From assembly GCA_963923455.1 (NCBI GenBank), contig CAWULT010000004.1:16315-80314 (forward strand): a DNA stretch of 64,000 nucleotides. Reading direction: 5' to 3'. Below, in pieces: positions 1,205 through 60,332 of the stretch. The notes under the pieces are model-generated. The model saw nothing but the letters and a program-made list of their open reading frames with translations. It did no database searches and had not been told where the DNA came from. This stretch comes from an uncultured bacterium (lineage in GTDB: Bacteria; Acidobacteriota; Vicinamibacteria; Vicinamibacterales; UBA2999). The position numbers and the translations under genes are program-made. Position 1 is the first letter of the stretch. The number at the start of each line of letters is the position of its first letter.

Positions 1205-1217
1205 CGACGACGCGCCC

Positions 1218-6983: not shown

Positions 6984-7224
6984 GCGATCTCCTCTCGCAG
7001 CGACCCAGCCGCCGGCTGGCGGCGCCGCAGTCGAGGACAGCATGAAGCAGACCAGTCTGCCGGCCAATGGAATCAATGGCTTACGGCAACGCTCGCTCCA
7101 GTCCGCTTACGGCGCGCGAAAGGGGTTTTCCGGGCGCGGCCCATCCACGTACGGCATGGCCGCGGCACCGTCCCGCACTGCGAACCGCGCGGCCCCGCCG
7201 GCGGAACGGCGAGGACCTGAAGGG

Positions 7225-7230
7225 TATAGT
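7225..7230 (+). promoter_or_regulatory. -10-like TATAGT, 6 nt upstream of the SDR ATG
   Basis: GGGTATAGTGAGCGGATG. Confidence 0.45.
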
Positions 7231-7236
7231 GAGCGG

Positions 7237-7977
7237 ATGGAACTGCAGGGCCGGGTAGCCCTGATTGCCGGCGGCACACGGATCGGCGGCCCTGTGGCGC
7301 GGGAGCTGGCGCGGGGAGGCGCCCATGTGGCCGTGGTCTACCGTACGTCGCGGCTGGCCGCAGAGCGCACCGCCGAGGACGTACGCGCGCTCGGGTCCCG
7401 CGCCGTCGTGTTGCAGGCGGACCTGGCCACCATCGACGCCGGCGACCGGGTGGTGACCGAGGTGGTGGCGGCACTGGGCCGGCTCGATGTGCTCGTCCAC
7501 ATGGCCTCCGTCTATCGGCAGCGGGCCTTCGACGTGCTGACGCCGGCCGACTGGGACGAGCAGATGGCCGTGGATCTCCGGTCGGCCTGGCTGTGTGCCC
7601 GGGCAGCCGTGCCGCACATGCGGCGGGTCGGCGGCGGCCGCATCGTCGTCTGCTCGGACTGGGTGGCACGCAGCGGGCGCCCGCGATATCCGGGCTACCT
7701 CCACTACTACGTGGCCAAGGCAGGTGTCATGGCCCTGGCCGAGGCGCTGGCCCTCGAACTCGCGGCCGACGGCATTCTGGTCAACGCCGTGGCGCCCGGC
7801 CCGATCCTGCCCGGTGATTCGGCCACGGCCGAGTACGTCCAGGCCGTCGAACGCGAGACCCCTGTCGGGCGCTGGGGCGGCGGCGAAGAAGTGGCCAAGG
7901 TCATTGGCGCGCTCATCGCCAGCGACTTCGTCACCGGGGAGACGATTCGGGTCGATGGCGGACGCCACGTCCGCTGA
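7237..7977 (+). CDS. short-chain dehydrogenase/reductase (SDR) family oxidoreductase
   Basis: N-terminal Rossmann motif (VALIAGGTRIGG). YxxxK active site (YYVAKAG). NAVAPGPI and C-terminal FVTGETIRVDGG. The track ORF is 5-prime-extended to 6574. Confidence 0.9.
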   Translation: MELQGRVALIAGGTRIGGPVARELARGGAHVAVVYRTSRLAAERTAEDVRALGSRAVVLQADLATIDAGDRVVTEVVAALGRLDVLVHMASVYRQRAFDVLTPADWDEQMAVDLRSAWLCARAAVPHMRRVGGGRIVVCSDWVARSGRPRYPGYLHYYVAKAGVMALAEALALELAADGILVNAVAPGPILPGDSATAEYVQAVERETPVGRWGGGEEVAKVIGALIASDFVTGETIRVDGGRHVR

Positions 7978-13662: not shown

Positions 13663-14834
13663 TCGTCTCGGACCGCGTGCCGGTCGACGCGAACACCAAC
13701 GCGCTGACCCGCCTGCTCGCCGCCCGCCGCGCCGCCGGTGTGCCCGTGATCGACCTGACCGAGTCGAACCCGACCCGGGCCGGCATCGCGTATCCCCCGG
13801 ACCTGCTCGCGCCGCTCGGCGATCCCGCCGGGCTGCGGTACGCTCCCGATCCGCGCGGGCTCGAGGGCGCCCGCCGGGCGATCGCCGGCGACGCCGCCCG
13901 GCGGGGCGTCACCGTGTCACCGGACGCGGTGGTGCTCTCGGCCAGCACCAGCGAGATGTACAGCTGGCTGTTCAAGCTGCTCTGCAATCCCGGAGACACG
14001 GTGCTGGTGCCGAGGCCCAGCTACCCGCTCTTCGAGCACCTGACGCGGCTCGAGCAGGTGCGGGCGTGCCCGTATCGGCTCGAGTACCACGGACGCTGGA
14101 CCGTGGACCTGGCGAGCGTGCGCGAGGCGCCGGCCTCGACGCGGGCGCTGCTCGTGGTCTCGCCGAACAACCCCACGGGCTCGTACGTGTCGCGCGCGGA
14201 CCTGTCGGCGCTCGTGGCCCTGTGCGGCGAACGGGGATGGGCGCTGATCGCCGACGAGGTGTTCGTCGATTACCCGCTTGCGTCGCCCGAGGCCGACGGG
14301 CCCCTCACCGACGTCGCGGCTCGCGCCACCGACGTCCTCACGTTCACGCTGGGCGGACTGTCCAAGTCGGTCGGGCTCCCGCAGGTCAAGCTCGGGTGGG
14401 CCGTGGTCGGCGGGCCGCCCGGCGACGCCCGGCAGGCGCTCGACGGACTCGAGCTCGTCGCCGATACGTTCCTGTCGGTATCCACGCCGGTGCAGCTCGC
14501 GGCCTCCACGCTGCTCGCGCGGGGGCTGGAGGTGCGCGACGCCATTCGTCTTCGCGTGCGGGAGAACCTCGCGCGGCTGCGCGCGATGGCGACGGCGCAC
14601 CCGTCGTGCGACGTGCTGCCCGTGGAGGGCGGATGGTCCGCCGTGGTGCGCGTGCCGGCCACGCGCAGCGAGGAGGCGCTGGTGCTCGACCTGCTCGCCC
14701 GCGAGTCCGTCCTCGTCCACCCTGGCTACTTCTTCGACTTCGACCACGAGGCCTTCCTGGTGCTCAGCCTCCTGCCGCCACCCGACGCGTTCGCCGAGGC
14801 GTGCGCGCGCGTGCTGCGCTTCGCATCCGCATGA
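13659..14834 (+). CDS. class I/II PLP-dependent aminotransferase
   Basis: LVPRPSYPLF, SPNNPTG, ADEVF, GGLSKSVGLPQVKLGW (PLP-lysine context). The GTG start overlaps the upstream stop (GTGA). Confidence 0.8.
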   Translation: MIVSDRVPVDANTNALTRLLAARRAAGVPVIDLTESNPTRAGIAYPPDLLAPLGDPAGLRYAPDPRGLEGARRAIAGDAARRGVTVSPDAVVLSASTSEMYSWLFKLLCNPGDTVLVPRPSYPLFEHLTRLEQVRACPYRLEYHGRWTVDLASVREAPASTRALLVVSPNNPTGSYVSRADLSALVALCGERGWALIADEVFVDYPLASPEADGPLTDVAARATDVLTFTLGGLSKSVGLPQVKLGWAVVGGPPGDARQALDGLELVADTFLSVSTPVQLAASTLLARGLEVRDAIRLRVRENLARLRAMATAHPSCDVLPVEGGWSAVVRVPATRSEEALVLDLLARESVLVHPGYFFDFDHEAFLVLSLLPPPDAFAEACARVLRFASA

Positions 14835-16417
14835 GCACCGACGCCCTCCGGCGAGCCGGCGTCATGGTGCCGCTGTTCTCCCTGCGGTCTCCCCAGAGCT
14901 GGGGCCTCGGGGAGATCGGCGATCTGGCGACGTTTCTGCCCTGGGCGGAGTCCGCGGGGCTGCGCCTCGTGCAGCTGCTTCCGATCAACGAGATGCCGTT
15001 CGGCGAGGCGTCGCCGTACTCGGCGTTGAGTGCGATGGCCGTCGACCCGCAGTTCATCTCGATGGGCGCCGTCGAGGACTTCACGGCGATCGGCGGCGAG
15101 CACGGGCTCGAGCCCGGCCTGCGGCATCGGCTGGCCGCGGTCCGTGCCGCGGAGGCGATCGACTACCGCCAGGTGCGGATCCTCAAGTTCGCGGCGCTGC
15201 GGCAGGCGTACGCGTACTTCGTCGAGCGCGAGCTCCCAGCCAGGTCGCGCCGGGCGCAGGCGTTCCGGGCGTTCGCGGCCGAGCAGGCATGGTGGCTCGA
15301 CGGGTACGCCCTCTTTCGGGCGCTGCACGCCTGGCACGAGGGACGGCCCTGGACGGAGTGGCCCGAGGGGATCCGTCGGCGCGATCCGGCAACCGTCGCC
15401 GAGGCGCGTGCCGCGCTCTCCGACGAGATCCGCTTCCGGCAGTACGTCCAGTGGCTCGCATCGGAACAGTGGCGCGCCGTCCGGGCGTCGGCCGGCAACG
15501 TGGCGCTCTTCGGAGACCTGCCGTTCATGGTGGCGCTGGACAGCGCGGACGTCTGGGAGCGCCAGGACGAATATCGCCTGGACGTTTCGGTCGGCGTGCC
15601 GCCCGACGCGTTCAGCGAGACGGGTCAGGACTGGCGGCTGCCGGCCTACGACTGGGACGTCTTCGCCGCCCGTGACTTCGACTGGCTGCGCCGGAGGGCC
15701 CGCCGCAACGCGGAACTCTTCGACGGGTACCGCGTCGATCACCTCGTGGGCTACTACCGGACCTACGTCCGGCCGCACGACGGCAGCCCGGCCCACTTCA
15801 TGCCCGCCGACGAGGCGGCGCAGACGCAGCTCGGCGAGCAGGTGCTCGGCGTGTTCCGGGCCTCGGGCGCCGAAATCGTCGCCGAGGACCTGGGCACCGT
15901 TCCCGATTTCGTCCGGGCGTCGCAGGCGCGGCTCGGCGTACCGGGCTGCAAGGTGATGCGCTGGGAGCGGCAGTGGCAGGCGCCGGGACAGCCGTTCACG
16001 GATCCACGCGACTACCCGGAGCTGGCCGTGGCCACCTCGGGCACGCACGACACCGAGCCGATGGTCGCGTGGTGGGCGGCCACGCCTGCCGAGGAGCGGG
16101 CGGCGCTGCTCGCCGTGCCGTCGGTCGGCCGGGGCCTCGACGACGCGGAGCGCGAGGCCGCCATCGCCGGGCCGCTCATGGCGCCGGGTCTGCGCGACCG
16201 CGTGCTCGAGGCCCTCTACGCGTCGCGGGCCTACCTGATCATCCTGCCGATGCAGGATCTCTTCGGGTGGGACGATCGCATCAACGAGCCCGCCACGATC
16301 GGCGAGCACAACTGGACGTGGCGCATGCGGTGGACCACCGACGAGTTGCGGACGCGCGCAGAGAGCGTGTCGGTGGCGGCCCGCCTCCGAGGGTGGACCG
16401 ACGCGCACGGCCGCTGA
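14831..16417 (+). CDS. malQ: 4-alpha-glucanotransferase (amylomaltase, GH77)
   Basis: GVMVPLFSLRS..WGLGEIGD, LLPINE, SPYSALSAMAVDP, GYRVDHLVGY, EDLGTVP, TSGTHDT. The ATG overlaps the upstream stop (ATGA). The track ORF is 5-prime-extended to 14066. Confidence 0.9.
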   Translation: MSTDALRRAGVMVPLFSLRSPQSWGLGEIGDLATFLPWAESAGLRLVQLLPINEMPFGEASPYSALSAMAVDPQFISMGAVEDFTAIGGEHGLEPGLRHRLAAVRAAEAIDYRQVRILKFAALRQAYAYFVERELPARSRRAQAFRAFAAEQAWWLDGYALFRALHAWHEGRPWTEWPEGIRRRDPATVAEARAALSDEIRFRQYVQWLASEQWRAVRASAGNVALFGDLPFMVALDSADVWERQDEYRLDVSVGVPPDAFSETGQDWRLPAYDWDVFAARDFDWLRRRARRNAELFDGYRVDHLVGYYRTYVRPHDGSPAHFMPADEAAQTQLGEQVLGVFRASGAEIVAEDLGTVPDFVRASQARLGVPGCKVMRWERQWQAPGQPFTDPRDYPELAVATSGTHDTEPMVAWWAATPAEERAALLAVPSVGRGLDDAEREAAIAGPLMAPGLRDRVLEALYASRAYLIILPMQDLFGWDDRINEPATIGEHNWTWRMRWTTDELRTRAESVSVAARLRGWTDAHGR

Positions 16418-32274: not shown

Positions 32275-32278
32275 TAGT
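32273..32278 (+). promoter_or_regulatory. -10-like TATAGT, 8 nt upstream of the ino1 GTG
   Basis: CATGATATAGTCGCGGGTTGTG. Confidence 0.45.
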
Positions 32279-32286
32279 CGCGGGTT

Positions 32287-33600
32287 GTGACGAAACCACT
32301 CGACATCGCCCCTGCACGCGGCAAACTCGGCGTGCTGCTCGTCGGACTCGGTGCCGTGAGCACCACCACCATCGCAGGCGTCATGGCCATCCGAAAGGGC
32401 CTCGCGCTCCCGATCGGCTCGCTCACGCAGATGGGTACCATCCGGCTCGGCAAGCGCACCGAGGGCCGCGCGCCCAAGATCAACGAATTCGTCCCGCTCG
32501 CGGGCCTCGACGACATCGTCTTCGGCGGCTGGGACATCTTCGAGGAAGACTGTTACGGCGCCGCGAAGACGGCGGGCGTGCTCGAGACGTCGCAGCTCGA
32601 CCAGGTGCGCGGCGAGCTCGAGGCGGTCAAACCGATGCCGGCCGTCTTCGACCAGCGCTACGTCAAGCGCCTCGACGGCCCCAACGTCAAGAAGGGCAAG
32701 AACAAGAAAGACCTCGCCGAGCAGCTCGTCGCCGACATCCGCGCGTTCAAGGCCAGGCACAACTGCGATCGGATGGTGATGCTCTGGGTGGGCAGCACCG
32801 AGGTGTTCATGAAGGAGGGGCCGGTCCACCAGAGCCTGGCCGCCTTCGAGAAGGGCCTCGAGACGAGCGACGACCAGATCCCGTCGAGCATGATCTACGC
32901 GTACGCGGCGATCAGCGAGGGCCTGCCATTCGTCAACGCGGCGCCGAACCTGACGGCCGACATCCCGGCGCTCCAGGAGCTGGCCGCGAAGACGAAGTCG
33001 CCGCTCGCCGGCAACGACATGAAGACCGGGCAGACGCTGATCAAGACGATCATCGCCCCGGGTCTCAAGGCGCGTCTGCTCGGCGTCAAGGGCTGGTATT
33101 CGACGAACATCCTGGGCAACCGGGACGGCGAGGTGCTCGACGATCCCGAGTCGTTCAAGACGAAGGAAGAGAGCAAGAAGTCGGCGCTCGACTACATCTT
33201 CCAGCCGCACCTGTACCCGAGCCTGTACGGCGACCTGACGCACGTCGTGCGCATCAACTACTACCCGCCGCGCGGCGACAACAAGGAAGGCTGGGACAAC
33301 ATCGACATCTTCGGCTGGCTCGGGTACCCGATGCAGTTGAAGATCAACTTCCTCTGCCGCGACTCCATCCTGGCGGCGCCGATCGTGCTCGACACGGCGC
33401 TCTTCATGGACCTGGCCAAGCGGACGGGCATGTCGGGCATCCAGGAGTGGCTGTCGTTCTACTTCAAGGCCCCGATGCACGCCCGCGAGGTGTATCCGGA
33501 GCACGACCTGTTCATCCAGCTGATGAAGCTGAAGAACACGCTGCGCCACATGATGGGCGAGGAGCTCATCACGCACCTCGGCCGCGAGTACTACGACTGA
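32287..33600 (+). CDS. ino1: myo-inositol-1-phosphate (inositol-3-phosphate) synthase
   Basis: 437 aa of the bacterial/archaeal MIPS type: N-terminal NAD-binding VLLVGLGAVSTT, NAAPN, SPLAGNDMKTGQT, LGNRDG. GTG start. Confidence 0.88.
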   Translation: MTKPLDIAPARGKLGVLLVGLGAVSTTTIAGVMAIRKGLALPIGSLTQMGTIRLGKRTEGRAPKINEFVPLAGLDDIVFGGWDIFEEDCYGAAKTAGVLETSQLDQVRGELEAVKPMPAVFDQRYVKRLDGPNVKKGKNKKDLAEQLVADIRAFKARHNCDRMVMLWVGSTEVFMKEGPVHQSLAAFEKGLETSDDQIPSSMIYAYAAISEGLPFVNAAPNLTADIPALQELAAKTKSPLAGNDMKTGQTLIKTIIAPGLKARLLGVKGWYSTNILGNRDGEVLDDPESFKTKEESKKSALDYIFQPHLYPSLYGDLTHVVRINYYPPRGDNKEGWDNIDIFGWLGYPMQLKINFLCRDSILAAPIVLDTALFMDLAKRTGMSGIQEWLSFYFKAPMHAREVYPEHDLFIQLMKLKNTLRHMMGEELITHLGREYYD

Positions 33601-33619
33601 CGGCCCTCCGCACGCCGTC

Positions 33620-34114
33620 ATGATCCAGCCCGCGCTCGTCGGCGGTCTCTTCATCGGCGTGCTCTCGGCGTTGCCGGTCGTCAGCCTCGGCAACTGCTGC
33701 TGCTTGTGGATGGTTGGCGGTGGATTCCTCGCCGCCTACCTCGAACACCTCCGTGACGCCCGCACCGTGCCATCCGGGCGCGGTCTGCTGCTCGGGGCGC
33801 TGGCCGGCGTCGCGGGTGCGTTCGTCTGGCTGCCCGTCTCGATCGCGATCACCGCGCTGGTCGGGCCGCTGCAGCAGCGGCTGGCCGGGGCGCTGGTCGC
33901 CGCCCCAGACATGCCAGCCGAGGCGCGCGGGTGGCTCGAGGCCCTCACCGGTCCGTTCCTCTATGCCCTCGGCTTCACGTTCCAGCTGGTCGCCGGCGCC
34001 GTCGCCGGCGCCATCGGCGGCCTGCTGGGCGCGGCATGGTTCCGCACGGACGTCCCGCCGGCGATGGGCGGTACTCCGCCCCCGCTGCCACCCGATCTCG
34101 GGGGCCTGCGGTAG
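33620..34114 (+). CDS. hypothetical small integral membrane protein (CCC motif)
   Basis: 164 aa with about four hydrophobic helices, an unusual GNCCCLW motif in TM1/2 and a Pro-rich tail. The ATG is 19 nt after the ino1 stop. Confidence 0.55.
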   Translation: MIQPALVGGLFIGVLSALPVVSLGNCCCLWMVGGGFLAAYLEHLRDARTVPSGRGLLLGALAGVAGAFVWLPVSIAITALVGPLQQRLAGALVAAPDMPAEARGWLEALTGPFLYALGFTFQLVAGAVAGAIGGLLGAAWFRTDVPPAMGGTPPPLPPDLGGLR

Positions 34115-48555: not shown

Positions 48556-51464
48556 ATGAACAGTTCCGGTTCTTGGATTCGAGCCCCGTTCGGCACTGCT
48601 GGCGTCATGCGGCCCGCCCTGCCCATCGTCGTCGTCTCCGTGCTGCTGTGCCTCGGTCTCGCGAACATCGCGTCGCGGCTCGCGTGGCGCGAGGTCGAGG
48701 ACGGCGTGCTGTGGGCGTCGCGCGCGGAGGGTGTCGTGGCGGCGGAGATCGCCGCAGGTTCGCCGGCCGCGGCCAGCGGGCTGGCCCGCGGAGACCTGCT
48801 GATCGCGATCGACGATCGACCCGTCGATGACCCGGCGGACGTCGTCGAGGCGCTGCACGCGGCCCGTGGCGCCGCGACGCTGCGCTACACCGTGCTGCGG
48901 CTCGGCTCGAGCGACGTGGTCGACGTCCGGCTCGCACCGGTGCCGGGCGGCGCCGGCATTCTGTATTTCGTGCTCGCGGCGGTGGGCACCTTCACGCTGC
49001 TCGTCGGCGGCGCCGTCCGGCTCCGCCGCCCGCGGGATCCCGCGACGCTGCACTTCCTCTGGCTGTGCGTCGCGTTCTTCGGCGTGTTCACGTTCTCCTT
49101 CAGCGGCCGCCTGGACCGCCTCGACTGGGTCTTCTACTGGGCCGACGTCGTGTCCATCCTGGTGCTGCCCCCGATGTTCCTCCACTTCACGGTGGTCTTT
49201 CCTGAGCGCCCGCGCTCGTGGATGGAGGGTGCGACCGGCCGGACGCTGATGGCGCTGGTCTACGTGCCGGCCGTGCTCCTGGGCGTCGCCCGGGTGGTGG
49301 CGGTCGCCACGAGCGAGCGTGATGCCAGCACGTTCGCGACGGCGACCGCGGCACTCGACCGCCTCGAGTTCCTGTATCTCGCGCTGTGTTTCGTCGGGGG
49401 GTTGATCACGCTGTCTCGCGCGCTGGCGCAGCTACGCACCATCACCGCGACGCGGCAACTCCGGTGGATCGCGTGGGGCACCGCTCTGGGCGCCGGCCCG
49501 TTCGCGATCGGGTACGCCTTTCCCTACGCCCTCGGGGTCGAGCCGTCGCTGCCGATGGAACTCTCGGCGATTCCGCTCAGCCTCATCCCACTCGCGTTCG
49601 CCTCCGCCATCGTTCGCTACCGGTTGATGGACATCGAGGTGATCGTCAAGCACGGCCTCGTGTACGCGGCGGCGCTGTCGTCCATTGTCGCGATCTACGT
49701 CGGCCTGCTGGAGCTGGTGCAGCGCGTCTTCACCCGGGGAGCGGACGGCAACGAGTGGGTGATCGCGTTCCTGGCCACGCTGGTGGCAGTCCTGCTGGCG
49801 CCGCCCGTCAAGGAGTTCGTGCAGACCGCCTTCGACCGCGCGTTCTATCGCGATCGCTATGACTATCGCCGGGCCCTCGTTGGCTTCGCCCGCGACCTCA
49901 GCGGCGACCTCGATCTCGACCGGCTCTCGGAGCGCCTCGTCTCGCGTGTCGTCGAGACGCTGCTCGTCGACCGGATGGCGCTGATGCTCGAGGACGGCAC
50001 CGGCCACGGCTTCCGGCCCGTGCGGGCGTCGGGCTTCGCCGACGACGGCGCCCCGGCGCTGCCGAAGGGGCTCGGCGTGGGTGGGCGCCTGGCCGCCGGG
50101 CACCTGGTGGCGCTCGACGACCCGATCGCGGCGACGCGCTTCGCGGCGGAGGAGATCGAGTTCTGGCGCGATCACGGCCTGTACTACTTCGTGCCGTGCG
50201 TGTCGGCCGAGGGGACGATCGCGGTGCTGGCGCTCGGGCGCAAGGGCACCGGCGAGCCGCTCAACAGCGAGGACGTGGCGCTGCTGGCGGCGGTGGCCGG
50301 CCAGGTGGCCACGGCGCTCGAGAACGCGCGCCTGTACCGCCAGCTGCACGACAAGGCCGTCGAACTCGACCGTCTGCGCGCGTTCAACGAGAACATCCTC
50401 GAGTCGCTCGACGACGGCCTGCTGGTGCTGGACCTCGACGACCGCGTCGTGCGCTGGAACACGGCGATCGAGCGTGTCTACGGCGTGCCCAGGGCCGACG
50501 CGATCGGCCGGCCGCTCGACGCGCTGTTCGATCCCGACTTCGTCGAGGCCGTGCGGGCGTCGCGCCGCGACACGCCGGACGGCGCCGTGCTGTCGCGCAT
50601 CCCGCTGCACGGCCGTGGCGCCCGCGCCGGCGTCCCGTTCACGGTGAACGCGGCGGTCGTGCCGCTTCGGTCGGACTCCGAGTCGGGCGTGGCGGCCGGC
50701 ACGATCGTGATCGTCGAGGACATCACGACACGCGTGCAGCTCGAGGAGCAGCTCCGGATCTCGGAGAAGATGGCCTCCATCGGCCTGCTCGCCGCCGGCG
50801 TCGCGCACGAGGTCAACACGCCGCTGACCGGCATCTCCAGCTTCACGCAGATGCTGCTCCAGAGCGCGGACCCGGACGATCCCCGCACGCGGCTCCTCGA
50901 GAAGATCGAGCGGCAGACGTTCCGTGCCGCCAAGATCGTCAATGGGCTGCTGAACCTGTCGCGTCCGTCCTCCGGGATGGCGGCCGAGCAGGCGCCGGTC
51001 GACGTCAATACGGTGATCGGTGACGTGCTCGGCCTGCTCGAGCACCAGTTCGGCACGCACCGCATCAAGGTGCGCCGTGAGCTGAGCGCGGAGCCGGCGC
51101 TCGTGCTGGGCCTCGAGCACCAGCTCCAGCAGGTCTTCCTGAACCTCTTCCTGAACGCCAAGGACGCGATGCCCAAGGGCGGCTGGCTGTCGGTCGTCAC
51201 CCGCGTCGATGCGGGACGTGTGAGCGCCGAGGTGGCCGACACGGGCTCTGGGATCCCCAACGAGTACCTCGCGCGGATCTACGATCCGTTCTTCACGACG
51301 AAGGCGATGGGCCAGGGCACCGGTCTCGGCCTGTCGATCACCTATGCGATCGTCCGCGAGCACGGCGGGTCGATCGAGTGCGACAGCACGGTCGGGCAAG
51401 GCACCCGGTTCACCCTGCTCCTGCCCGCGGTCGCGGCGGACATGGCCGCATCGGTGGCACGACG

Positions 51465-51468
<4 letters not shown>
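48556..51468 (+). CDS. sensor histidine kinase: PDZ - multi-TM - GAF - PAS - HisKA - HATPase
   Basis: TM1, then a PDZ-like module (GSPAAASGLARGDLLIAIDDRPV). About 7 hydrophobic helices, then a GAF-like region and a PAS-like region. H-box GVAHEVNTPL, N/G boxes (LNAKDAM, DTGSGI, GTGLGLS). An alternative ATG at 48607 is possible. Confidence 0.9.
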
Positions 51469-52946
<1,478 letters not shown>

Positions 52947-52959
52947 GCGGCGCCCCGGG

Positions 52960-54240
52960 CTACCGGGGCTTGGCGCGCGACACCAGCCGTTCGAGCCTCG
53001 CCAGCACGGCGTCCCAGCGATACTGCTGCTCGACGTAGGCCCGGCCCGCGTCGCCGAGCCTCCGGCGCAGCGCGGAGTCGGCCGCCAGCACCTGCATCGC
53101 CTCGGTGAACTCGTCCCGGCTTCCGTAGTAGAGGCCCGCATGCGCCCGCCGGCAGTGGTCCACCGCGGCCGCGTTGGCGCTGCTCGCCAGCACCGGGGTG
53201 CCGACCGCGAAGCTCTCGAGCACCGGCTGGGCGAGCAGGTCGTCGGAGGCCGGCGTGATCGTCAGGTCGGCCGCCTCGAAGGCGATCATGCGATCCCGGT
53301 CCGGGAGCACGCCTGCCTGGCGGAGGTAGCGCTCGTCGGGCACCTTCATCATCTTGACGCCCATCAGCACGAGGGGCATCTCGCCACCGTGTCCCGCGTA
53401 GGTGTCGAAGTAGTCCAGCATCTCCTCGCAGCCGTTGTCGGGCTCGATCCGGCCACCGTAGAGCGCGAATGGCCCGTAGAGCCGGTGGCGCCGGCGGAAC
53501 GGAACGCCTGGAGCGGTCAGGTACGCGTCCTCGGGGGGAAGGTCCTCCTCGCCATGCTCCGGAGCCGGTTCGTCTTCGTCGACCACCGCGTCGGCGGGGT
53601 CCTGCTGGTGGCGGGGATACGACTGGCGCGGGGGCGGATCGATGCCGATGCCGACGAGTTCGGTTGGGACCGACAGGCCCGGGAACCACGCGCGCAGCAA
53701 CCGGTGCTCGGCGCTCGAGAACAGTCCGAGCGCGCGCGCCGACGCCAGCACGTCGCTCCAGAGCGAGAGGCGCAGCACGTCCCTGTACTGCAGGTACGGA
53801 AACAGCAGACTGCGTTCGGGCGCGATGGCCAGGCCCTGCACCGTCGTTGCGTGGAAGAGCGAGAAGAACAGGATGGCGTCGTAGCTGCGGTGCTGGCGGC
53901 TCAAGTGCTCGAGAAGCCCGGCCGACCACGGCCCGGCTCGCCTGGCCAGATCGAGTTCCTCCTCCCGCGTGTGCGGCTCGGCCAGCAGACGGCGGCGCAC
54001 GGCCGCAACGGCGTCGGGGTCCTCGGCGCTGCCGACCATGAACCGCCGCACGCGAACGCCGCGCACGCGGTCCTGGCCCTCCTGGTACTCGTTGCGCCAC
54101 GTCAGCGGGTCACGCGCGCAGGTGGTCAGGACGTCGACGTCGTGCCGCTGGCTCGCGTGCTCGGCGAGCAACCGGCAGGCGTGTTCGGCCCCAGAAGGGA
54201 TATCGGCGCCGTAGCGGGGAGTGATGAACGCGAGTTTCAT
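52960..54240 (-). CDS. GT4-family (group 1) glycosyltransferase, paralogue B, with acidic insert
   Basis: N-terminus MKLAFITPRYGADIPSGAEH...VLTTCARDPLTWRNEY is paralogous to the upstream gene. C-terminal GT-B half with the E..S.P..ES.AVGTPVLA EX7E-like region. ATGA overlap with the upstream stop. Confidence 0.85.
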   Translation of the reverse strand: MKLAFITPRYGADIPSGAEHACRLLAEHASQRHDVDVLTTCARDPLTWRNEYQEGQDRVRGVRVRRFMVGSAEDPDAVAAVRRRLLAEPHTREEELDLARRAGPWSAGLLEHLSRQHRSYDAILFFSLFHATTVQGLAIAPERSLLFPYLQYRDVLRLSLWSDVLASARALGLFSSAEHRLLRAWFPGLSVPTELVGIGIDPPPRQSYPRHQQDPADAVVDEDEPAPEHGEEDLPPEDAYLTAPGVPFRRRHRLYGPFALYGGRIEPDNGCEEMLDYFDTYAGHGGEMPLVLMGVKMMKVPDERYLRQAGVLPDRDRMIAFEAADLTITPASDDLLAQPVLESFAVGTPVLASSANAAAVDHCRRAHAGLYYGSRDEFTEAMQVLAADSALRRRLGDAGRAYVEQQYRWDAVLARLERLVSRAKPR

Positions 54241-55547
54241 GAGACGGCGTACCGCGAAGGCGCGGCGGCACGCACGGGGCCTGACGGCGCGTCGCGCAGC
54301 ACGGCCGTGGCCGGCGGCAGCGTACGCGCGCGCCTGGCGAACCAGTGCGGCAGCGGCGCCATGGAATGGGCCGGCGGTTCGCCGGCGAGGCGAGAGAACA
54401 TGTCGAGGTAGGCGCGCTCGATGACGGGCCAGCTGTAGTGCTCGGCGTAGTAGCGCCGGCCGCTGGCGCCCATTGCCGCGGCGAGCGGCGCGTCGTCGAG
54501 GACGCGGTCCGCCATGCCGATGAACTCCGCGGACGAGGTGTACGCCAGGCCCGCGTTGCTCCGCAGGCACTGGCCGGCCAGCACGTCGCACCGTCCGTTG
54601 GCGAGCACCGGCCTCCCGAGAGCCCAGGCCTCGAGGGCCGCCATCGACAGACTCTCGTAGTAGGACGGGACGACGACGAGGTCGGCGGCGGCGATCACCG
54701 AGAACTTCTCCTCGTCAGTGACGTAGCCGAGGTGCCGGATCCGCGGGTGCTGCGGAATGGGCATCGTCGGCCTGCCGACGAGGACCAGGTCGATGGATCG
54801 ATCCGAGGCGTGCAGGTACTGCGTGAAGTAATCGAAGAGTTCCGCGCAGCCCTTGTTCGGGTCGATCCGGCCGACGTAGAGCATGAACGGCGCGGTCAGT
54901 CCGAACCGCTGGCGCGCGATGTCGGGTGCTGCCGCGGTCGGCACGTCGGAGCCGATGCCGACGACCACGCCGGGAACGTCGGCATTCGACGTCAGCGCGG
55001 TGATGAGGGCCTGTTCCTCCGGCGTGTTGTACATGACTGCCCGGACCCCTCGGAAAACAGGCCCGAACAGCGCCAGGCCGAGTGCGGGATCGCGCTCGGC
55101 CGTCGGCACCAGCACGGCGCGTCGCCCGGCCGCGCGCGCGGCGTGGTAGGCGCAGTGATACCGGATCGTGAAGATCAGCACGAAGTCGAATTCGTCGCCG
55201 GCCTGACGGACGCGAGCCGTCAGCCGGGGGCAGACGGGTCCCTCGCTGTCGAGCCACCGCAGCTCGTCGGCCAGGGAGTGCCGCTCGTCGAACACGAGTC
55301 GCGAGAGCCGGGCAAACGCCTTCAGGTCGCGTTCGCGCGCCACGGGGAACCGTTCGACCGGGACGCCGTTGACCTGGTCCGCCCCGGCCGGATACTCGTT
55401 GCGCCAGCTCACGTGGTCGCGCGCGCAAGTCGTCAGGACGGTGACTTCGGCATGCGCGGACAGCCGCTCGGCCACGTAGCGCGCGTGCAATTCCGATCCG
55501 GCCCCGATGTCGCTTCCGTACCGCTGCACGACGACAGCGAGCTTCAC
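54237..55547 (-). CDS. GT4-family (group 1) glycosyltransferase, paralogue A
   Basis: MKLAVVVQRYGSDIGAGSELH...VLTTCARDHVSWRNEY, YVGRIDPNKG, PSYYESLSMAALEAWALGRPVLAN (EX7E region). The GTG start overlaps the upstream stop (GTGA). Confidence 0.85.
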   Translation of the reverse strand: MKLAVVVQRYGSDIGAGSELHARYVAERLSAHAEVTVLTTCARDHVSWRNEYPAGADQVNGVPVERFPVARERDLKAFARLSRLVFDERHSLADELRWLDSEGPVCPRLTARVRQAGDEFDFVLIFTIRYHCAYHAARAAGRRAVLVPTAERDPALGLALFGPVFRGVRAVMYNTPEEQALITALTSNADVPGVVVGIGSDVPTAAAPDIARQRFGLTAPFMLYVGRIDPNKGCAELFDYFTQYLHASDRSIDLVLVGRPTMPIPQHPRIRHLGYVTDEEKFSVIAAADLVVVPSYYESLSMAALEAWALGRPVLANGRCDVLAGQCLRSNAGLAYTSSAEFIGMADRVLDDAPLAAAMGASGRRYYAEHYSWPVIERAYLDMFSRLAGEPPAHSMAPLPHWFARRARTLPPATAVLRDAPSGPVRAAAPSRYAVS

Positions 55548-56614
55548 TGCCCGTTCTGGTCCGTGTCCTGCCGTTCCGCCGGCGGTGCGGGTGCCTCGGT
55601 GTCGGCGGCCGGTCTGGGGCGCGCCGGTTCGACCGCCGGGCCCGGCTCGGGCGCCGCCTGGACGCCGCCGGTCTCGGCGCCCTCGTCGCCGGCTTCGGCG
55701 CCGTCGTCCTCGAAATCGCCGTCCGGCGCCTGCGCGTCGGGCGTCGCCTCGGCGCCCCCCTCACCCTGCCCCATGCCGCTCCGGCGTCCGCGGCGCCGCC
55801 GCCGCCGGCGGCGAGTGCCGTCGCCGGCGGCCGCCTCGCTGCCGGTGCCCTCCGCCCGGCCTGCGGCGGGAATCGAAGTGGCGGCCGTGTCCGCCGGTGA
55901 CGGTCGGGCGCTCGCGGGCGGAGCCGTCTCCATGCTTCGCACCCGGCGGTCGTTGAACTCGACCCGCGCGTCCAGGGCCTCGACTCGGGCTGCGAGGCTC
56001 TGCACCTCGACGCTGACACGGGAGATCTCGACGACGAGGCGCTGCAGGATGCCGTAGTGCAGCGCGTTCCACTCCGCCTGCCGGCGTTCCCGCTCCTGCT
56101 CGCGCCGCCCGGCCTCGAGGTTGATTCGGGCCTGCGTGTTCAGCGCCTGGATCAGCGGGTTCGGGTTGAAGAAGAGCTTCAGCACCGGCTGCAGCAGCCG
56201 GCGCATGAACCGGACGAATCCGCTCTGGGACTCGTACAGGGTGTCGTCTTCGAAGCTGAACCCTGTCGAGGGTTCGGGCGCGACGGCGTCCACCGAGGCG
56301 CCCGCGCTTCGCCGAAGCTGCTCGAGGAGCGACGGCTTGACGTTCCTGGGGTCGAGAATCGCCTCGAGCCGCCGCGCTGCCAGCTCCTGGATCTGGGCGT
56401 TCGAGAGCTCTATACCGTGGCGCTGCGCGATGCGGGACCGGATCTCCCGCATGATCTGCTCGACGTCCGCGTGTTCGCCGCGCGGCTCCTGGCGCTGGTG
56501 CTCCGGCCCGTGTGGGGCCTGGCTGCGTCGCTCTCCGCCGCCGCGCTTGTCCGGACCGCGCCGGCGGTGGAAGTGCGGACGGCGGCCGGACGGCTGATTC
56601 TGATCAGTTGGCAT
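55544..56614 (-). CDS. hypothetical coiled-coil protein with basic N-terminus, Arg tract and acidic C-terminus
   Basis: 356 aa. Conserved-looking core (IMREIRSRIAQRH...LYESQSGFVRFMRRLLQPVLKLFFNPNP...) followed by heptad-like coiled coil. Disordered termini. Translationally coupled to the GT genes. Confidence 0.7.
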   Translation of the reverse strand: MPTDQNQPSGRRPHFHRRRGPDKRGGGERRSQAPHGPEHQRQEPRGEHADVEQIMREIRSRIAQRHGIELSNAQIQELAARRLEAILDPRNVKPSLLEQLRRSAGASVDAVAPEPSTGFSFEDDTLYESQSGFVRFMRRLLQPVLKLFFNPNPLIQALNTQARINLEAGRREQERERRQAEWNALHYGILQRLVVEISRVSVEVQSLAARVEALDARVEFNDRRVRSMETAPPASARPSPADTAATSIPAAGRAEGTGSEAAAGDGTRRRRRRRRGRRSGMGQGEGGAEATPDAQAPDGDFEDDGAEAGDEGAETGGVQAAPEPGPAVEPARPRPAADTEAPAPPAERQDTDQNGQ

Positions 56615-56750
56615 GGTCCATTCACTCGTCGACGGCCCGCTCGGGAACGCCGAGCGAAAGGCCGAGCGTCCGTGGCCGTGCAGGCCGCCAGACGCCAGTG
56701 GGCATTGTCCCCGATCGCTCCTCTGCCGGGAAGGGCTCTAATCGGCGGCC

Positions 56751-57632
56751 TCATCGCCCCAGGGGGGTGTACAGAATCAGCCCCACGCTCAGGACCCACA
56801 AAGCCACGCAGACCAGCAGCGGGCGGTCGGACACCAGCATCGCGGAGGGGCTTCCGCCCCCGCGCCGCTGGTGGACCAGGTAGAGATACCGGAAGATGCC
56901 GTAGAGCACGAACGGAATCGTCAGGCCCAGCCGGGACGTGCCGAAACGCTGCGCAGTCTCGGAACTCGTCGCGTACAGGCTGTAGGTGATCACCGTGGAC
57001 GCCGTGACGACGCTGATCATCTGGTCCAGCAGGTAGGGGCTGTAGTGGTCCAGGATGGGCCGGTGGCTCGAGGCGCCATCGGCCAGCAGCACGAGCTCGT
57101 GCCGGCGCTTGCTGAAGGACAGGAACAGGGCGAACAACGTCGTGCACACGAGCAGCCAGTGGCTGATCGGCACCGCCACTGCCACGGCGCCGGCAACGGC
57201 ACGCAGCACGAACCCCCCCGCGATGGTCAGGGCGTCGACGATTACTATGTGCTTGAACAGAAACGAGTAAAGCGTCAGCACCACGACGTAGGCCACGGTG
57301 ACGAGGGCCAGCGTCGGACTGATCCAGAGCGCGCCGGCGATGCCGGAGGCGACGAGCACCACGCCCGCCCCGAGCGCGACGCGCACGGGGAGCTGTCCCG
57401 CGGCGATCGGTCGCGTCCGCTTCAGGGGGTGCTGCTGGTCACCGTGCCGGTCCGCGATGTCGTTGAAGAGGTAGATGGCCGAGGAGAGGCCACAGAAGAT
57501 GACGAACGTGGCCGTGGCCGAGCCGAGCGCAGCCGGGTCGAACAGGCGACCGCCGAACAAGAGGCCAGCGAAGACCAGCAGGTTCTTCGTCCACTGCTCG
57601 GGGCGGAACGACGTGACGAGCGGTGACAGCAC
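56751..57632 (-). CDS. UbiA-superfamily polyprenyl-phosphate phosphoribosyltransferase homologue (decaprenyl-phosphate PRPP transferase-like)
   Basis: RPEQWTKNLLVFAGLLF, NDIADRHGDQQHPLKRTRPIAAG (NDxxDxxxD plus the Rv3806c-like context), second Asp-poor motif, about 8-9 TM helices. GTG start. Confidence 0.8.
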   Translation of the reverse strand: MLSPLVTSFRPEQWTKNLLVFAGLLFGGRLFDPAALGSATATFVIFCGLSSAIYLFNDIADRHGDQQHPLKRTRPIAAGQLPVRVALGAGVVLVASGIAGALWISPTLALVTVAYVVVLTLYSFLFKHIVIVDALTIAGGFVLRAVAGAVAVAVPISHWLLVCTTLFALFLSFSKRRHELVLLADGASSHRPILDHYSPYLLDQMISVVTASTVITYSLYATSSETAQRFGTSRLGLTIPFVLYGIFRYLYLVHQRRGGGSPSAMLVSDRPLLVCVALWVLSVGLILYTPLGR

Positions 57633-57724
57633 TGGATGTTATGAGCGGCCGCCGGGACGCGCTCGGGAGGCGAGGCGTCCGATGGCGATGGAATGGCGCC
57701 TGGGCCCTGGCCCGCAGACCCGGC

Positions 57725-58078
57725 CTAAACCTTGGCGGCGCCCGAGAAGCTTCGGACTGCGTCCGCTTCGTTGTCGTGCGTTTCGAAGACGGTGAGCAGC
57801 TTCGTAATGGACAGCAGATCGGTAATGCGCTTGGTCAGGTTCAGCAGTTTCAGGCTGCCGCCCTGCCGGCTGACGGTCGTGTAGGCGCCAACGATCTGGC
57901 CCAGGCCGGCGCTGTCGATATAGGGCACTTCCGCGAAATTGAGGATGAGCTTCCGCTGCCCCTGCATGATCAGGCTGTTGATCTTGTCCTTGAGGATCTC
58001 GTCACCCTCGCCCAAGGTCATCTTGCCCTTGAGGTCGAGAATGATCACGTCCCCGGCGGATCGTTCCTCGATCTTCAT
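57725..58078 (-). CDS. STAS-domain anti-sigma-factor antagonist (SpoIIAA/RsbV-like)
   Basis: 117 aa: VIILDLKGKM, YIDSAGLG (phosphorylatable Ser context), LKLLNL. RBS GAGGA 4 nt before the ATG. Confidence 0.9.
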   Translation of the reverse strand: MKIEERSAGDVIILDLKGKMTLGEGDEILKDKINSLIMQGQRKLILNFAEVPYIDSAGLGQIVGAYTTVSRQGGSLKLLNLTKRITDLLSITKLLTVFETHDNEADAVRSFSGAAKV

Positions 58079-58198
58079 ATGTCCTCAGTATGCGTGCGGC
58101 CGCGCAAGGGGCGCAAGTTTAGCATACCCAGCCAAGGCCAGCGGGCGTGCGGCCGCTGGCACGCGCGGGCAGACACCCGAGACTGGCTCCTATGCAAC

Positions 58199-58224
58199 AA
58201 GGGCCAGACGCTCGTCTGGCCCTT
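58199..58224 (-). terminator. 10-bp hairpin downstream of the zinc-ribbon gene
   Basis: AAGGGCCAGA-cgctcg-TCTGGCCCTT, about 58 nt after the stop at 58282. No U-tract on either strand. Confidence 0.4.
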
Positions 58225-58281
58225 GTCGTGACCGAACCCGGTCAAGGGGTGTCGGCGTGATCGTCGAGAGCGGCCGAGGCG

Positions 58282-58590
58282 CTAGCCGCCCGCGCCTGCA
58301 AACTTCCGTTGCTGGAAGCATTCCTTGCAGAACACGGGGCGGCCCTGTGTCGGGCGGAAGGGCACGGTGGTGTCCATGCCGCATGCCGAACAGGTGGCCT
58401 GGGTTTCCACCCGGTCGCGTGGGGGGCCCGGGTTCATCGTTGCCCGGTTGGCCCGTTTGGCCTTGCAGGCCTTGCAGCGCTTGGGTTCGTTCTTGAACTG
58501 CTTGTCGGCGAAGAAGAGCTGTTCGCCGGCCGTCCAGATAAACTCAGTACCGCAATCCACACACGTGAGGGACTTGTCCTGGAACTCCAT
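58282..58590 (-). CDS. zinc-ribbon domain protein (duplicated CxxC...CxxC module)
   Basis: 102 aa with two repeats of the C.DCG..F........F......F...P.RC..C pattern (CVDCG...CKAC and CSACG...CKEC). RBS GAGGTGG. Confidence 0.75.
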   Translation of the reverse strand: MEFQDKSLTCVDCGTEFIWTAGEQLFFADKQFKNEPKRCKACKAKRANRATMNPGPPRDRVETQATCSACGMDTTVPFRPTQGRPVFCKECFQQRKFAGAGG

Positions 58591-58631
58591 CGGCCGCCAC
58601 CTCGTGAGCTCGTCGATCGTGCCGTGTCGCG

Positions 58632-58829
58632 CTACTCCGACTCCCGCCGGAGCTTCTTGCGGTTCCTCTTCCGCGCCAGAGCCTGCTTGGCCCGACGCTT
58701 GTCGCCTGGTTTCAGATAGAAAGAGTGCTTCTTGATGTCCTTGATGATGTCTTCCTGCTGAACCTTGCGCTTGAACCGCCGGAGGGCGCTCTCGATCGAC
58801 TCGCCCTCCTGGATCTTGACTTCAGCCAC
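58632..58829 (-). CDS. rpsU: 30S ribosomal protein S21
   Basis: VAEVKIQEGESIESALRRFKRKV...KPGDKRRAKQALARKRNRKK matches the S21 pattern. GTG 58829 is chosen; the track ORF opens at TTG 58859. Confidence 0.88.
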   Translation of the reverse strand: MAEVKIQEGESIESALRRFKRKVQQEDIIKDIKKHSFYLKPGDKRRAKQALARKRNRKKLRRESE

Positions 58830-59048
58830 GCCTGAATACACCCCCTCTGACGGCTGCAAACCTTCCTGTGAACGGCCTCGTAAAGTGGCGAATATGTTAG
58901 GCTATCACAGGCAGGCGCGGATTCTAGGCGGTACACGGCTCTAGGTCAACGAAATTACTCGCGTGCCCCCTCTCGTTTGCACGCGGAGCGCGCCTCGGCC
59001 GAAAGCTCAGCCGTAAGGCGCTGACCTGTAGTCTCTTGGGCTGATTCG

Positions 59049-60332
59049 ATGAAGATCCTTGTCGTCGGGAGCGGTGCCCGCGAGCACGCCCTGGCCTGGA
59101 CCCTGCGCCAGGACCCGACCGTCTCCGAAGTCGTCTGTACTCCAGGAAATCCCGGCATCGCCTCCGTTGCCCGATGCGTACCGGCCGACGTCTCGAGGCC
59201 CGAGCAGGTGCTGGCGGTGGCCGAGTCGGCGGGCGTGGACCTCACCGTCGTCGGGCCAGAGATGCCCCTGAGCAACGGGGTAGTCGACCTGTTCGAGGCC
59301 CGCGGCCGCGCCATCGTCGGTCCCACCCGGGCAGCCGCGGCGCTCGAATGGAGCAAGGCGTTCGCGAAGGACTTCATGGCCCGGCACGGGGTGCCGACCG
59401 CCAGGTTCCATGTCTGCGCCGGCCCTGAGGAGGCGCTGGCCGTCGTGGGCGCCGGAACCTTTGGCTTTCCTCTCGTGATCAAGGCCGATGGCCTGGCCGC
59501 CGGAAAGGGCGTCGTGATCGCGGAGGACCGGGCGGGCGCCGAGGCGGCCGTCCGGTCGATGATGGTCGACCGCCGCTTCGGCGCGGCGGGCGATCGCATC
59601 GTCTTCGAGGAGTTCCTGGTCGGCCAGGAGGCCTCATACTTCGTCCTGTCGGATGGCACGTCGTTCGTGACGTTGTCCTCGGCCCAGGATCACAAGCGCA
59701 TCTTCGACGGTGACCGCGGCCCGAACACGGGCGGCATGGGCGCGTTCGCGCCCAGCCCGCTCGTGACCGAGGCCGTCGAGCGCCGGATCGTCGACGAAAT
59801 CGTGCGCCCCGTGCTCGATGGCATGCGCAGGGAGGGGATGCCGTACCGCGGCTTCCTCTATGTCGGGCTGATGCTGACTGCAGCCGGGCCCAAGGTGATC
59901 GAGTTCAACGTCCGGTTCGGCGACCCGGAGGCGCAGGTGATCCTGCCGATGCTCGGCGAGAGCCTGGCGGCGCTGCTGATGGGTGCCGCGCGGCGCACGC
60001 TGACGCCGCGGGCGGCCGTGTTCAAACCCGAGCGGCTGGTGGGCGTCGTCCTGGCCGCGGGAGGCTATCCGGACGATCCGGAAACGGGACGCGCCGTTGC
60101 CGGCCTCGAGGCCGCGGCCGCCACGCCGGGAGCGATCGTGTTCCACGCCGGCACGAAGATGATCGACGGCGCGCTGGTCACGTCGGGCGGGCGCGTCCTC
60201 ACGGTCGTCGGACGCGGGGCGACCTATGAAGAGGCGATCGAGATCGCCTATCGTGCCGCGGCGCACGTCAGGTTCGACGGCCTCCAGTTCCGCTCAGACA
60301 TCGGCAAGAAGGCGCTGACGATCGCTTCGTGA
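59049..60332 (+). CDS. purD: phosphoribosylamine--glycine ligase
   Basis: MKILVVGSGAREHALAW, ATP-grasp core (VIKADGLAAGKGV), GPNTGGMGA, EFNVRFGDPE, GGRVL.V. Confidence 0.97.
   Translation: MKILVVGSGAREHALAWTLRQDPTVSEVVCTPGNPGIASVARCVPADVSRPEQVLAVAESAGVDLTVVGPEMPLSNGVVDLFEARGRAIVGPTRAAAALEWSKAFAKDFMARHGVPTARFHVCAGPEEALAVVGAGTFGFPLVIKADGLAAGKGVVIAEDRAGAEAAVRSMMVDRRFGAAGDRIVFEEFLVGQEASYFVLSDGTSFVTLSSAQDHKRIFDGDRGPNTGGMGAFAPSPLVTEAVERRIVDEIVRPVLDGMRREGMPYRGFLYVGLMLTAAGPKVIEFNVRFGDPEAQVILPMLGESLAALLMGAARRTLTPRAAVFKPERLVGVVLAAGGYPDDPETGRAVAGLEAAAATPGAIVFHAGTKMIDGALVTSGGRVLTVVGRGATYEEAIEIAYRAAAHVRFDGLQFRSDIGKKALTIAS

Follow-up and report, generated by a model that had tools for sequence, protein, structure and literature searches.

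A candidate Rv3806c-type phosphoribosyltransferase adjoining a coiled-coil and GT4 gene module in Vicinamibacterales

Research on lipid-linked pentofuranose chemistry has so far been concerned with its value as a target of tuberculosis drugs and with its role in modifying enterobacterial O antigens. Here, we analyse four neighbouring genes, encoding a UbiA homologue, a coiled-coil protein (CC) and two GT4 glycosyltransferases (GTA and GTB), in a stretch of 64,000 nucleotides from an uncultured bacterium (contig CAWULT010000004.1, positions 16,315 to 80,314; hereafter the window), which has a G+C content of ~70% and the nearest relatives of which are metagenome-assembled genomes (MAGs) labelled Vicinamibacterales, phylum Acidobacteriota. 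Bacteria of this order rank among the most common in soil, and to our knowledge their envelope glycans, on which this locus gives a concrete handle, are almost unexplored. Related systems have been described. In Gram-negative O antigens, a polyprenyl-phosphate phosphoribosyltransferase (PPPRS), a phosphatase, a flippase and a GT-C glycosyltransferase make a lipid-linked pentofuranose and use it outside the cytoplasm, as exemplified by the three-component system of Citrobacter youngae, composed of a PPPRS-phosphatase (ORF15), a MATE flippase and a GT-C enzyme of family GT136 (PMC11127046). Since lipid-linked pentofuranosylation derived from phosphoribosyl pyrophosphate (PRPP) was thereby described in Gram-negatives in 2024, a first-pass annotation of the window went too far in calling such chemistry undescribed. 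As for coiled-coil proteins, a “ruler” bearing a terminating enzyme is a marker of ABC-transporter-dependent polysaccharide assembly (PMC3482155, PMC11231755). The parts of our locus are of known kinds, and their combination in Vicinamibacterales is an unstudied, new arrangement. Our proposal, which we hold to be about evenly poised between right and wrong, is that two separable modules, a GT4 backbone unit and a PPPRS pentofuranose donor, together serve one envelope polysaccharide.

The main features are the following (window coordinates):

56751-57632, minus strand: UbiA homologue (candidate PPPRS), 293 aa, GTG start
56615-56750, minus strand: UbiA-CC spacer, 136 nt; a DUF362 gene occupies this spot in most relatives
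55544-56614, minus strand: coiled-coil protein (CC), 356 aa
55781-55813, minus strand: poly-arginine tract of CC (RRRRRRRRGRR, CC residues 268-278)
54237-55547, minus strand: GT4-A (GTA), 436 aa, GTG start overlapping the CC stop (GTGA)
52960-54240, minus strand: GT4-B (GTB), 426 aa from its MKLAF start, the ATG of which overlaps the GTA stop (ATGA)
53521-53628, minus strand: acidic low-complexity linker of GTB (residues ~205-240), between two Rossmann-like halves

The UbiA homologue passes the cut-offs of two NCBIfam models for decaprenyl-phosphate phosphoribosyltransferase (NF008977: 289.5 bits vs. 234; NF008978: 240.7 vs. 207), while other models of the UbiA superfamily remain far below theirs (haem O synthase: 32.7 vs. 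210; UbiA: 28.7 vs. 275; MqnP: 18.4 vs. 375). Taken together, the models for haem O synthase, 4-hydroxybenzoate polyprenyltransferase, MenA/MqnP and chlorophyll synthase yield 15–33 bits for cut-offs of 180–375. Across the whole PDB, a match at E ≤ 1 is found solely for the Rv3806c entries of Mycobacterium tuberculosis (8j8j/8j8k; E 4e-41), collinear over residues 4-285 (282 residues), and the stretch NDIADRHGDQQHPLKRTRPIAAG of the UbiA homologue pairs with NDVRDVEADREHPTKRFRPIAAG of Rv3806c in the alignment. A crude hydropathy scan finds seven hydrophobic segments in the window protein, which aligns end to end with the solved protein of nine transmembrane segments.

In Rv3806c, Mg is held by N73 and D77, the pyrophosphate by R22, K87, R90, K143 and Y138, and the 5'-phosphate by K28, Y70 and Y157 (PMC10994848). 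When the published ligands were placed on an alignment of the window protein and 82 clade members, 14 residues (R22, K28, Y70, N73, D74, D77, D81, K87, R90, Y138, K143, R192, E195 and R207) were found to be identical between the window protein and Rv3806c and to be kept in 81–82 of the 82 clade members; Y157 is replaced by Phe, a variant also present in some mycobacteria. Both the NDxxDxxxD loop and the K/R cluster of Rv3806c are present, the latter in place of the second Asp-rich motif. Judging from these matches, the UbiA homologue is predicted to be a PPPRS of the Rv3806c type, as the first-pass annotation had recognised when setting it apart from quinone prenyltransferases, and PRPP is well supported as its putative donor. 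A TAA codon directly precedes the GTG start of its frame (57630-57641), and the protein is therefore without the ~24-residue N-terminal extension of most relatives (~317 aa). The closest plasmid-borne PPPRS homologues (43% identity) are found on haloarchaeal megaplasmids (NZ_CP007056, NZ_CP149788, NZ_CP132295), two out of three bearing the annotation decaprenyl-phosphate phosphoribosyltransferase, and the clade thus has members in both Bacteria and Archaea. PGAP-type annotation already gives such names to PPPRS homologues in Bacteroidota, Alphaproteobacteria and haloarchaea.

GTA and GTB are 32% identical from end to end (E 8e-59) and indeed have the common N-terminus that had been noticed at first (MKLA..RYG.DI..G.E...V.VLTTCARD..WRNEY). 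GTA matches Glycos_transf_1 and Glyco_trans_1_4 in Pfam (53.3 and 59.7 bits) and has an EX7E motif (ESLSMAALE), whereas GTB, matching Glycos_transf_1 (27.8 bits) and Glyco_trans_1_2 (30.2 bits), has DX7E (DLLAQPVLE) instead. The closest solved structures are other GT4 enzymes (Tll1590, MshA, PimB' and PglA), and by Pfam and these structural neighbours both proteins are ordinary members of this family. Each shows 42–71% identity to its positional orthologues (54–71% for GTA in Vicinamibacterales loci), and GTA 36–48% to the GT4s of the UbiA-less modules discussed below. A neighbour-joining tree recovers distinct GTA and GTB clades, the lone A/B-type enzyme of locus L062 grouping with GTA. Relative to GTA, GTB carries an acidic insert of 36 residues, flanked by conserved YPR... 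and RG..FRRR, and a variable-length, mostly acidic linker is found at this site in all 50 full-length orthologues but one poorly aligned outlier (L081). Thus, while the first-pass annotation was right about the presence of an acidic insert of ~35 residues, GTB cannot be said to have acquired it lately, and GTA and GTB are old paralogues. The recent tandem duplication that had been read into their resemblance is ruled out by the 32% identity, by the separate orthologue clades across the order and by the occurrence of the linker throughout GTB orthologues; in most relatives, two further GT4 genes stand between the two.

For CC, neither Pfam nor NCBIfam yields a significant family, a profile search of the PDB returns generic coiled coils only, and none of the three reveals a catalytic or terminator domain (methyltransferase, kinase or glycosyltransferase). 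Foldseek, run on an AlphaFold2 (AF2) model with a predicted template-modelling score (pTM) of 0.28, finds nothing better than E 6. Sub-threshold matches to HPTransfase (18 bits) and to a chain-length-determinant model (17.9 bits vs. a cut-off of 279) were considered as noise and not used. The family is of modest size, with 642 cluster representatives at E ≤ 1e-3, and an alignment of 37 homologues divides the protein into four parts: a conserved basic N-terminal peptide (GRRPHFHR.RRGPD.R, encoded at 56540-56590), a conserved helical core (residues ~50-230) opening with (V/A)DVEQIMR.IR.RI, an invariant Arg tract and an unconserved, acidic and proline-rich tail. In the AF2 model, helices cover residues 51-66, 72-86, 94-104, 130-149 and 152-229, the last one being 78 residues long with pLDDT > 90, and the remainder is disordered. 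Despite the lack of conservation of the tail, R271-R275, G276, R277 and R278 are invariant across the 37 homologues, and R268 and R269 nearly so. That this tract or the basic peptide might bind membrane or nucleic acid is a guess.

To survey the surroundings of the UbiA gene, we used a UbiA-anchored scan with one genome per GTDB species, which gave 80 loci of 17 kb each, nearly all from Vicinamibacterales or “Acidobacteriota” MAGs, and in which gene order was mapped by tblastn. The consensus order is purD(-), [rpsU], zf_Tbcl, STAS, UbiA, [DUF362], CC, GTA, [two more GT4s], GTB, NtrC(-). CC, GTA and GTB follow UbiA in 50 of the 56 loci that extend at least 7.9 kb downstream, and a STAS gene precedes it in 66 of 77 loci. 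Most relatives have two extra GT4 genes (GTx and GTy) between GTA and GTB, while the subclade of the window has neither these nor DUF362. Rearrangements further upstream (L048, L025, L071) leave the UbiA-CC-GT4 block whole, and it recurs in L062, an unclassified bacterium of 45% G+C with different flanks and no STAS gene, as a divergent PMT_2 GT-C gene, UbiA (53% identity), a 164-aa CC-like protein, GT(A/B) (41%), GTx (42%) and GTy (41%). The conserved linkage between UbiA and GT genes expected by the first-pass annotation is thus borne out. Five Acidobacteria-like metagenome loci (L107, L112, L114, L129, L138) also show the order STAS-UbiA-CC-GT4s, or that part of it covered by the contig, with a UbiA nearer to that of L062. 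On a plasmid of Marivivens sp. JLT3646 (NZ_CP018573), an annotated PPPRS gene sits between a GT4 and a PAP2 gene, close to Gmd and EamA. In other phyla, clade members lie beside GT-C genes (PMT_2 in L062 and L073, GT87 in L070) and EamA genes (L070, L075), and such GT-C neighbours fit the published donor logic of PPPRS (PMC11127046).

A GT4-anchored scan of metagenomes, queried with an alignment of A/B-type GT4s, gave another 80 loci (24–73% G+C), some but not every ORF of which was scanned for families. The widespread GT4 set consists of an A/B type, GTx, GTy and often a second A/B type. UbiA was found in 10 of the 29 loci that reach 3.5 kb or more upstream, all of the 10 being high-GC and Acidobacteria-like. 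Among the loci devoid of UbiA, a first group (L097, L125, L085, L104, L120, L123) has, upstream of the GT4s, Gmd (GDP-mannose 4,6-dehydratase), a second GDP-sugar dehydratase/reductase, an ABC-2 permease (Wzm) and Wzt with Wzt_C, as well as a coiled-coil protein of which the N-terminal half is CC-like and the C-terminal half an FkbM or class I methyltransferase (L097, L125, L085, L123). This arrangement is the one usually met in ABC-transporter-dependent O-polysaccharide loci. The window GTA is 36–41% identical over its full length to the GT4s of these Gmd/Wzm/Wzt loci, and hhalign matches the CC family to the coiled-coil proteins preceding the same GT4s in Wzm/Wzt loci (probability 88.7%, E 2.6e-6, 163 columns). 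A second group (L092-L095, L100, L101, L111, L133; e.g., L133 5409-12481) combines an LtaS-like “sulfatase” membrane protein (~630 aa), a CC-like protein of ~200 aa and four GT4s, and the Aminicenantes locus L070 has a similar sulfatase gene (12985-14895) close to its UbiA-DUF362-GT87 genes. Since CC and GT4s occur widely without UbiA, including in Gmd/Wzm/Wzt loci, they represent an independent glycan-building module, rather than specific partners of the UbiA enzyme. The window version of this module is a reduced one, with two GT4s and a CC that has no catalytic domain.

In the working model, the PPPRS would transfer ribose-5-phosphate from PRPP to polyprenyl phosphate at the inner membrane face, and the resulting polyprenyl-P-ribofuranose-5-P would be dephosphorylated, and perhaps epimerised, into a lipid-linked donor from which a GT-C enzyme adds pentofuranose on the extracytoplasmic side. 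CC and the translationally coupled GT4 pair would form a cytoplasmic glycan-building unit dependent on nucleotide sugars, in which CC, having no catalytic domain, would have a scaffolding or spacing role only. For Vicinamibacterales, we propose a backbone built by the GT4 module and a pentofuranose decoration supplied through the PPPRS, with the phosphatase, the flippase and the GT-C enzyme presumably encoded elsewhere in the genome. The family membership of the parts, the active-site residues, the synteny and the independence of the two modules are direct results of our comparisons. From these results we infer what the substrates are, that the product is shared and that the absent partners exist.

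Several observations weigh against this model. UbiA is absent from 19 of the 29 GT4-anchored loci mentioned above and, conversely, occurs without the GT4s in L070, L073, L075 and L079; the clade members without GT4s belong to Aminicenantes, Elusimicrobiota, Bacteroidota and Methylomirabilota, and their neighbours are DUF362, EamA, epimerase and GT-C genes. Within the order, the whole 20-kb region is syntenic, including purD, rpsU, the NtrC-type regulator and the kinase; the flanking housekeeping genes being equally syntenic, gene order within Vicinamibacterales is weak evidence of shared function. In the window itself, a Pfam and NCBIfam search of ~50 ORFs (a few small ORFs lying outside the scan) found no PAP2/HAD phosphatase, flippase, GT-C, epimerase or Wzm/Wzt over the 64 kb, and a hydropathy scan singled out UbiA and a sensor kinase as the only polytopic membrane proteins. 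Finally, the ribose-O3 ligand Q135 of Rv3806c corresponds to Leu119 in the window protein, which could reflect a different way of gripping the sugar; given that the Q135A mutant of Rv3806c retains ~30% of its activity (PMC10994848), the change does not disqualify the protein as a PPPRS. Across the clade, this position is L in 51 members, Q in 14, F in 10 and N in 3, the other ligands being invariant.

At face value, part of these observations would be expected if the PPPRS and the CC-GT4 module were functionally unrelated neighbours, with separate products and an adjacency due to general synteny. Not only are the flanks equally conserved (purD, rpsU, zf_Tbcl, STAS, NtrC, the kinase and a TonB-type protein), but a gap of 136 nt, or in relatives a DUF362 gene, separates UbiA from the next gene, whereas CC, GTA and GTB overlap; the 19 loci without UbiA and the four outgroup loci without GT4s point in the same direction, and L001 keeps UbiA after having lost GTA. 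We nonetheless find mere neighbourhood rather unlikely, because L062 repeats the order UbiA, CC-like, GT(A/B), GTx, GTy in a 45% GC context with different flanks, because the block survives the upstream rearrangements of L048, L025 and L071, and because a PPPRS adjoins GT4 and Gmd on the Marivivens plasmid as well. Another way to connect the genes would be to regard lipid-linked phosphoribose as a primer, polyprenyl-P-ribose(-5-P) being extended by CC-held GT4s with nucleotide sugars into a monophosphate-linked lipid oligosaccharide, in which case no GT-C is needed in cis for the pentose. Neither an initiating phosphoglycosyltransferase nor a GT-C, flippase or phosphatase is present nearby, the succession PPPRS, CC, GT4s resembles an initiator-then-extender layout, and the GT4 relatives PglA and PimB' use lipid-linked acceptors. 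Monophosphate-linked oligosaccharide carriers do exist in archaeal N-glycosylation, but we know of no precedent for the glycosylation of polyprenyl-P-ribose. The idea is further weakened by the fact that the CC-GT4 module does without UbiA in most other lineages, and also in Wzm/Wzt loci for which an undecaprenyl-pyrophosphate-sugar (Und-PP-sugar) primer is expected, and the outgroup relatives of the UbiA clade adjoin GT-C genes, so we consider it improbable.

The same low standing is given to a D-arabinofuranose route in the style of Corynebacteriales, in which DprE1/DprE2-like enzymes encoded elsewhere would yield polyprenyl-P-arabinofuranose. The PPPRS belongs to the family of Rv3806c, a trio of PPPRS, flavin adenine dinucleotide (FAD) oxidoreductase and short-chain dehydrogenase/reductase (SDR) exists outside Actinobacteria (e.g., on a Flammeovirgaceae plasmid), and arabinosylation of Pseudomonas pilin is cited in PMC11127046. 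Yet partner genes are usually adjacent in arabinofuranose-making systems, and no FAD_binding_4-type oxidoreductase was found either in the window or in the 80 UbiA loci of 17 kb. A DprE1-type FAD oxidoreductase and DprE2 are likewise missing from the ~50 ORFs of the window; the first-pass annotation had declared both absent, which holds over these 64 kb, the genome as a whole being outside the scope of the search. The sole SDR of the window (6571-7977) was rejected as a DprE2 candidate, as it is ~50 kb away and FabG- or pteridine reductase-like. As for the UbiA homologue being an aromatic (quinone, haem or chlorophyll) prenyltransferase, with no phosphoribose involved at all, it can be dismissed with hardly any reservation. 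Pfam assigns this single-domain protein to the general UbiA family only, and the automatic JGI names of close homologues read “4-hydroxybenzoate polyprenyltransferase”, but the HMM cut-offs, the PDB matches (without any aromatic prenyltransferase structure at E ≤ 1) and the conservation of the PRPP ligands, along with the K/R cluster typical of Rv3806c instead of a second Asp-rich motif, all point to Rv3806c. The two-module model remains the one that we prefer.

A DUF362 gene (PF04015) lies right after the PPPRS gene in 42 of 62 relatives (e.g., L001 10919-12043, L002, L003, L009), as well as in Aminicenantes, Bacteroidota and Methylomirabilota (L070 8880-9956, L075, L079), and survives as decayed fragments only in L021. 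No remnant was detected by tblastn in the 136-nt gap or the rest of the window. The same slot is taken by a PAP2 phosphatase in M. tuberculosis and on the Marivivens plasmid, and DUF362 might act as a polyprenyl-P-ribose-5-P phosphatase not recognised so far, or as a partner enzyme of another kind. It has no solved relative, and we found no literature tying this PPPRS enzyme to Acidobacteria or to DUF362. One may imagine, as a long shot, that Vicinamibacterales use PRPP-derived lipid-linked phosphoribose in a pathway wired unlike both the mycobacterial and the enterobacterial systems, either as a primer presented by the poly-Arg CC to the GT4s, or in a new envelope polymer bearing pentofuranose, with DUF362 as the phosphatase.

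Regarding the wider locus, the four genes had been described as a co-directional set, and all of them do lie on the minus strand, but the run in fact comprises seven genes, headed by rpsU, the zf_Tbcl gene and the STAS gene:

57725-58078, minus strand: STAS-domain anti-sigma-factor antagonist, 92 nt upstream of the PPPRS gene (Pfam STAS 59.7 bits, TIGR00377 65.3 bits)
58282-58590, minus strand: zf_Tbcl/CxxC protein (Pfam zf_Tbcl)
58632-58859, minus strand: rpsU, with the translation of ribosomal protein S21 (PF01165 in syntenic L001)
58921-58949, minus strand: predicted sigma-70-like promoter, TTGACC-17-TAGAAT (10/12 matches, consensus match only)

This promoter match, upstream of rpsU, is the only one found for the run in a consensus scan. 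The letters of the minus strand agree with the overlaps previously reported for CC/GTA (GTGA at 55547-55544) and GTA/GTB (ATGA at 54240-54237), and the open frame of GTB extends upstream of its MKLAF start. The 136-nt gap contains no sigma-70-like promoter or terminator-like site, although such a consensus-only scan may be insensitive at 70% GC. Its predicted RNA fold is not unusual (z-score −0.97), its sequence is not conserved in relatives, and Rfam at a permissive threshold gives no match over 52000-59200. In one Vicinamibacterales subclade, a resistance-nodulation-division (RND) efflux pair (HlyD-type adaptor and AcrB-type pump, ~4.5 kb) is inserted between the zf_Tbcl and STAS genes (L009 3077-7377; L033 3029-7361; L060 2290-6546), so the operon-like run tolerates insertions; the pair was rejected as unrelated.

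Downstream of the cluster, an NtrC-type sigma-54 activator (51378-52946) and a large sensor kinase (970 aa; 48556-51468) are both convergent on the GT4 genes. In the kinase, the first 420 residues contain about nine hydrophobic segments and, between the first two of these, a PDZ domain; GAF, PAS and HisKA/HATPase domains follow. It pairs with the NtrC-type protein, and both are syntenic with the GT4s across the order; they may regulate the cluster. A SpoIIE-type PP2C phosphatase at the opposite end of the window (44-1297) is, like the STAS protein, a partner-switching component, and the STAS protein is a syntenic neighbour of the PPPRS gene. A myo-inositol-1-phosphate synthase gene, ~20 kb from the GT4 genes and followed by a small membrane-protein ORF (32278-34114 for both) with three hydrophobic segments and no Pfam match, gives a hint of lipids or solutes that contain inositol. 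Entries of 100% identity exist in the protein database for the UbiA homologue and CC, while the best match of GTA is just 79% identical, a shortfall likely due to the source record calling another start or leaving the gene uncalled.

Cooperation of the two modules would bring lipid-linked pentofuranose chemistry to Acidobacteriota and imply a ruler-type coiled-coil protein that functions without a terminator domain; if the modules are mere neighbours, the locus comes down to routine annotation. Two side observations are the more intriguing leads: the pairing of PPPRS with DUF362 in several phyla, which by its recurrence could assign a function to this large and so far uncharacterised domain, and the ruler-like poly-Arg coiled-coil protein devoid of a terminator domain.

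When set against known systems, the window resembles plasmid clusters in which PPPRS homologues of 33–34% identity are annotated as decaprenyl-phosphate phosphoribosyltransferase (Marivivens NZ_CP018573, Flammeovirgaceae CP139022), but has neither the PAP2 and EamA genes of the former nor the FAD oxidoreductase and SDR genes of the latter. With E. coli O9a WbdD-WbdA and Klebsiella O4/O7/O12 (PMC3482155, PMC11231755), it shares a long coiled-coil gene directly before GT4 genes, a likeness to WbdD that is one of architecture, since the sequence homology of CC is to uncharacterised metagenomic CC proteins alone. Unlike the WbdD-type proteins, CC has no terminator domain and is endowed with a basic N-terminal peptide and an invariant poly-Arg tract, and no Wzm/Wzt genes are found in the window. 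With M. tuberculosis Rv3806c (8j8j/8j8k; PMC10994848), the PPPRS shares 282 collinear residues, the NDxxDxxxD loop, the K/R cluster and the 5'-phosphate ligands, whereas it differs by the replacement of Q135 by Leu, a shorter N-terminus, a diderm acidobacterial host and a lipid acceptor that is presumably not decaprenyl phosphate; an adjacent PAP2 phosphatase (Rv3807c), DprE1/DprE2 and arabinofuranosyltransferases are missing from the window. Finally, as in Citrobacter youngae-type systems, a PPPRS of the same family is located beside genes for a cytoplasmic polysaccharide, and a Leloir-made backbone decorated with lipid-linked pentofuranose is, by analogy, a plausible logic for the window too. 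While the window PPPRS has no fused HAD phosphatase domain and neither a flippase nor a GT-C accompanies it in the 64 kb, its relatives in other phyla do have PMT_2/GT87 GT-C and EamA genes nearby.

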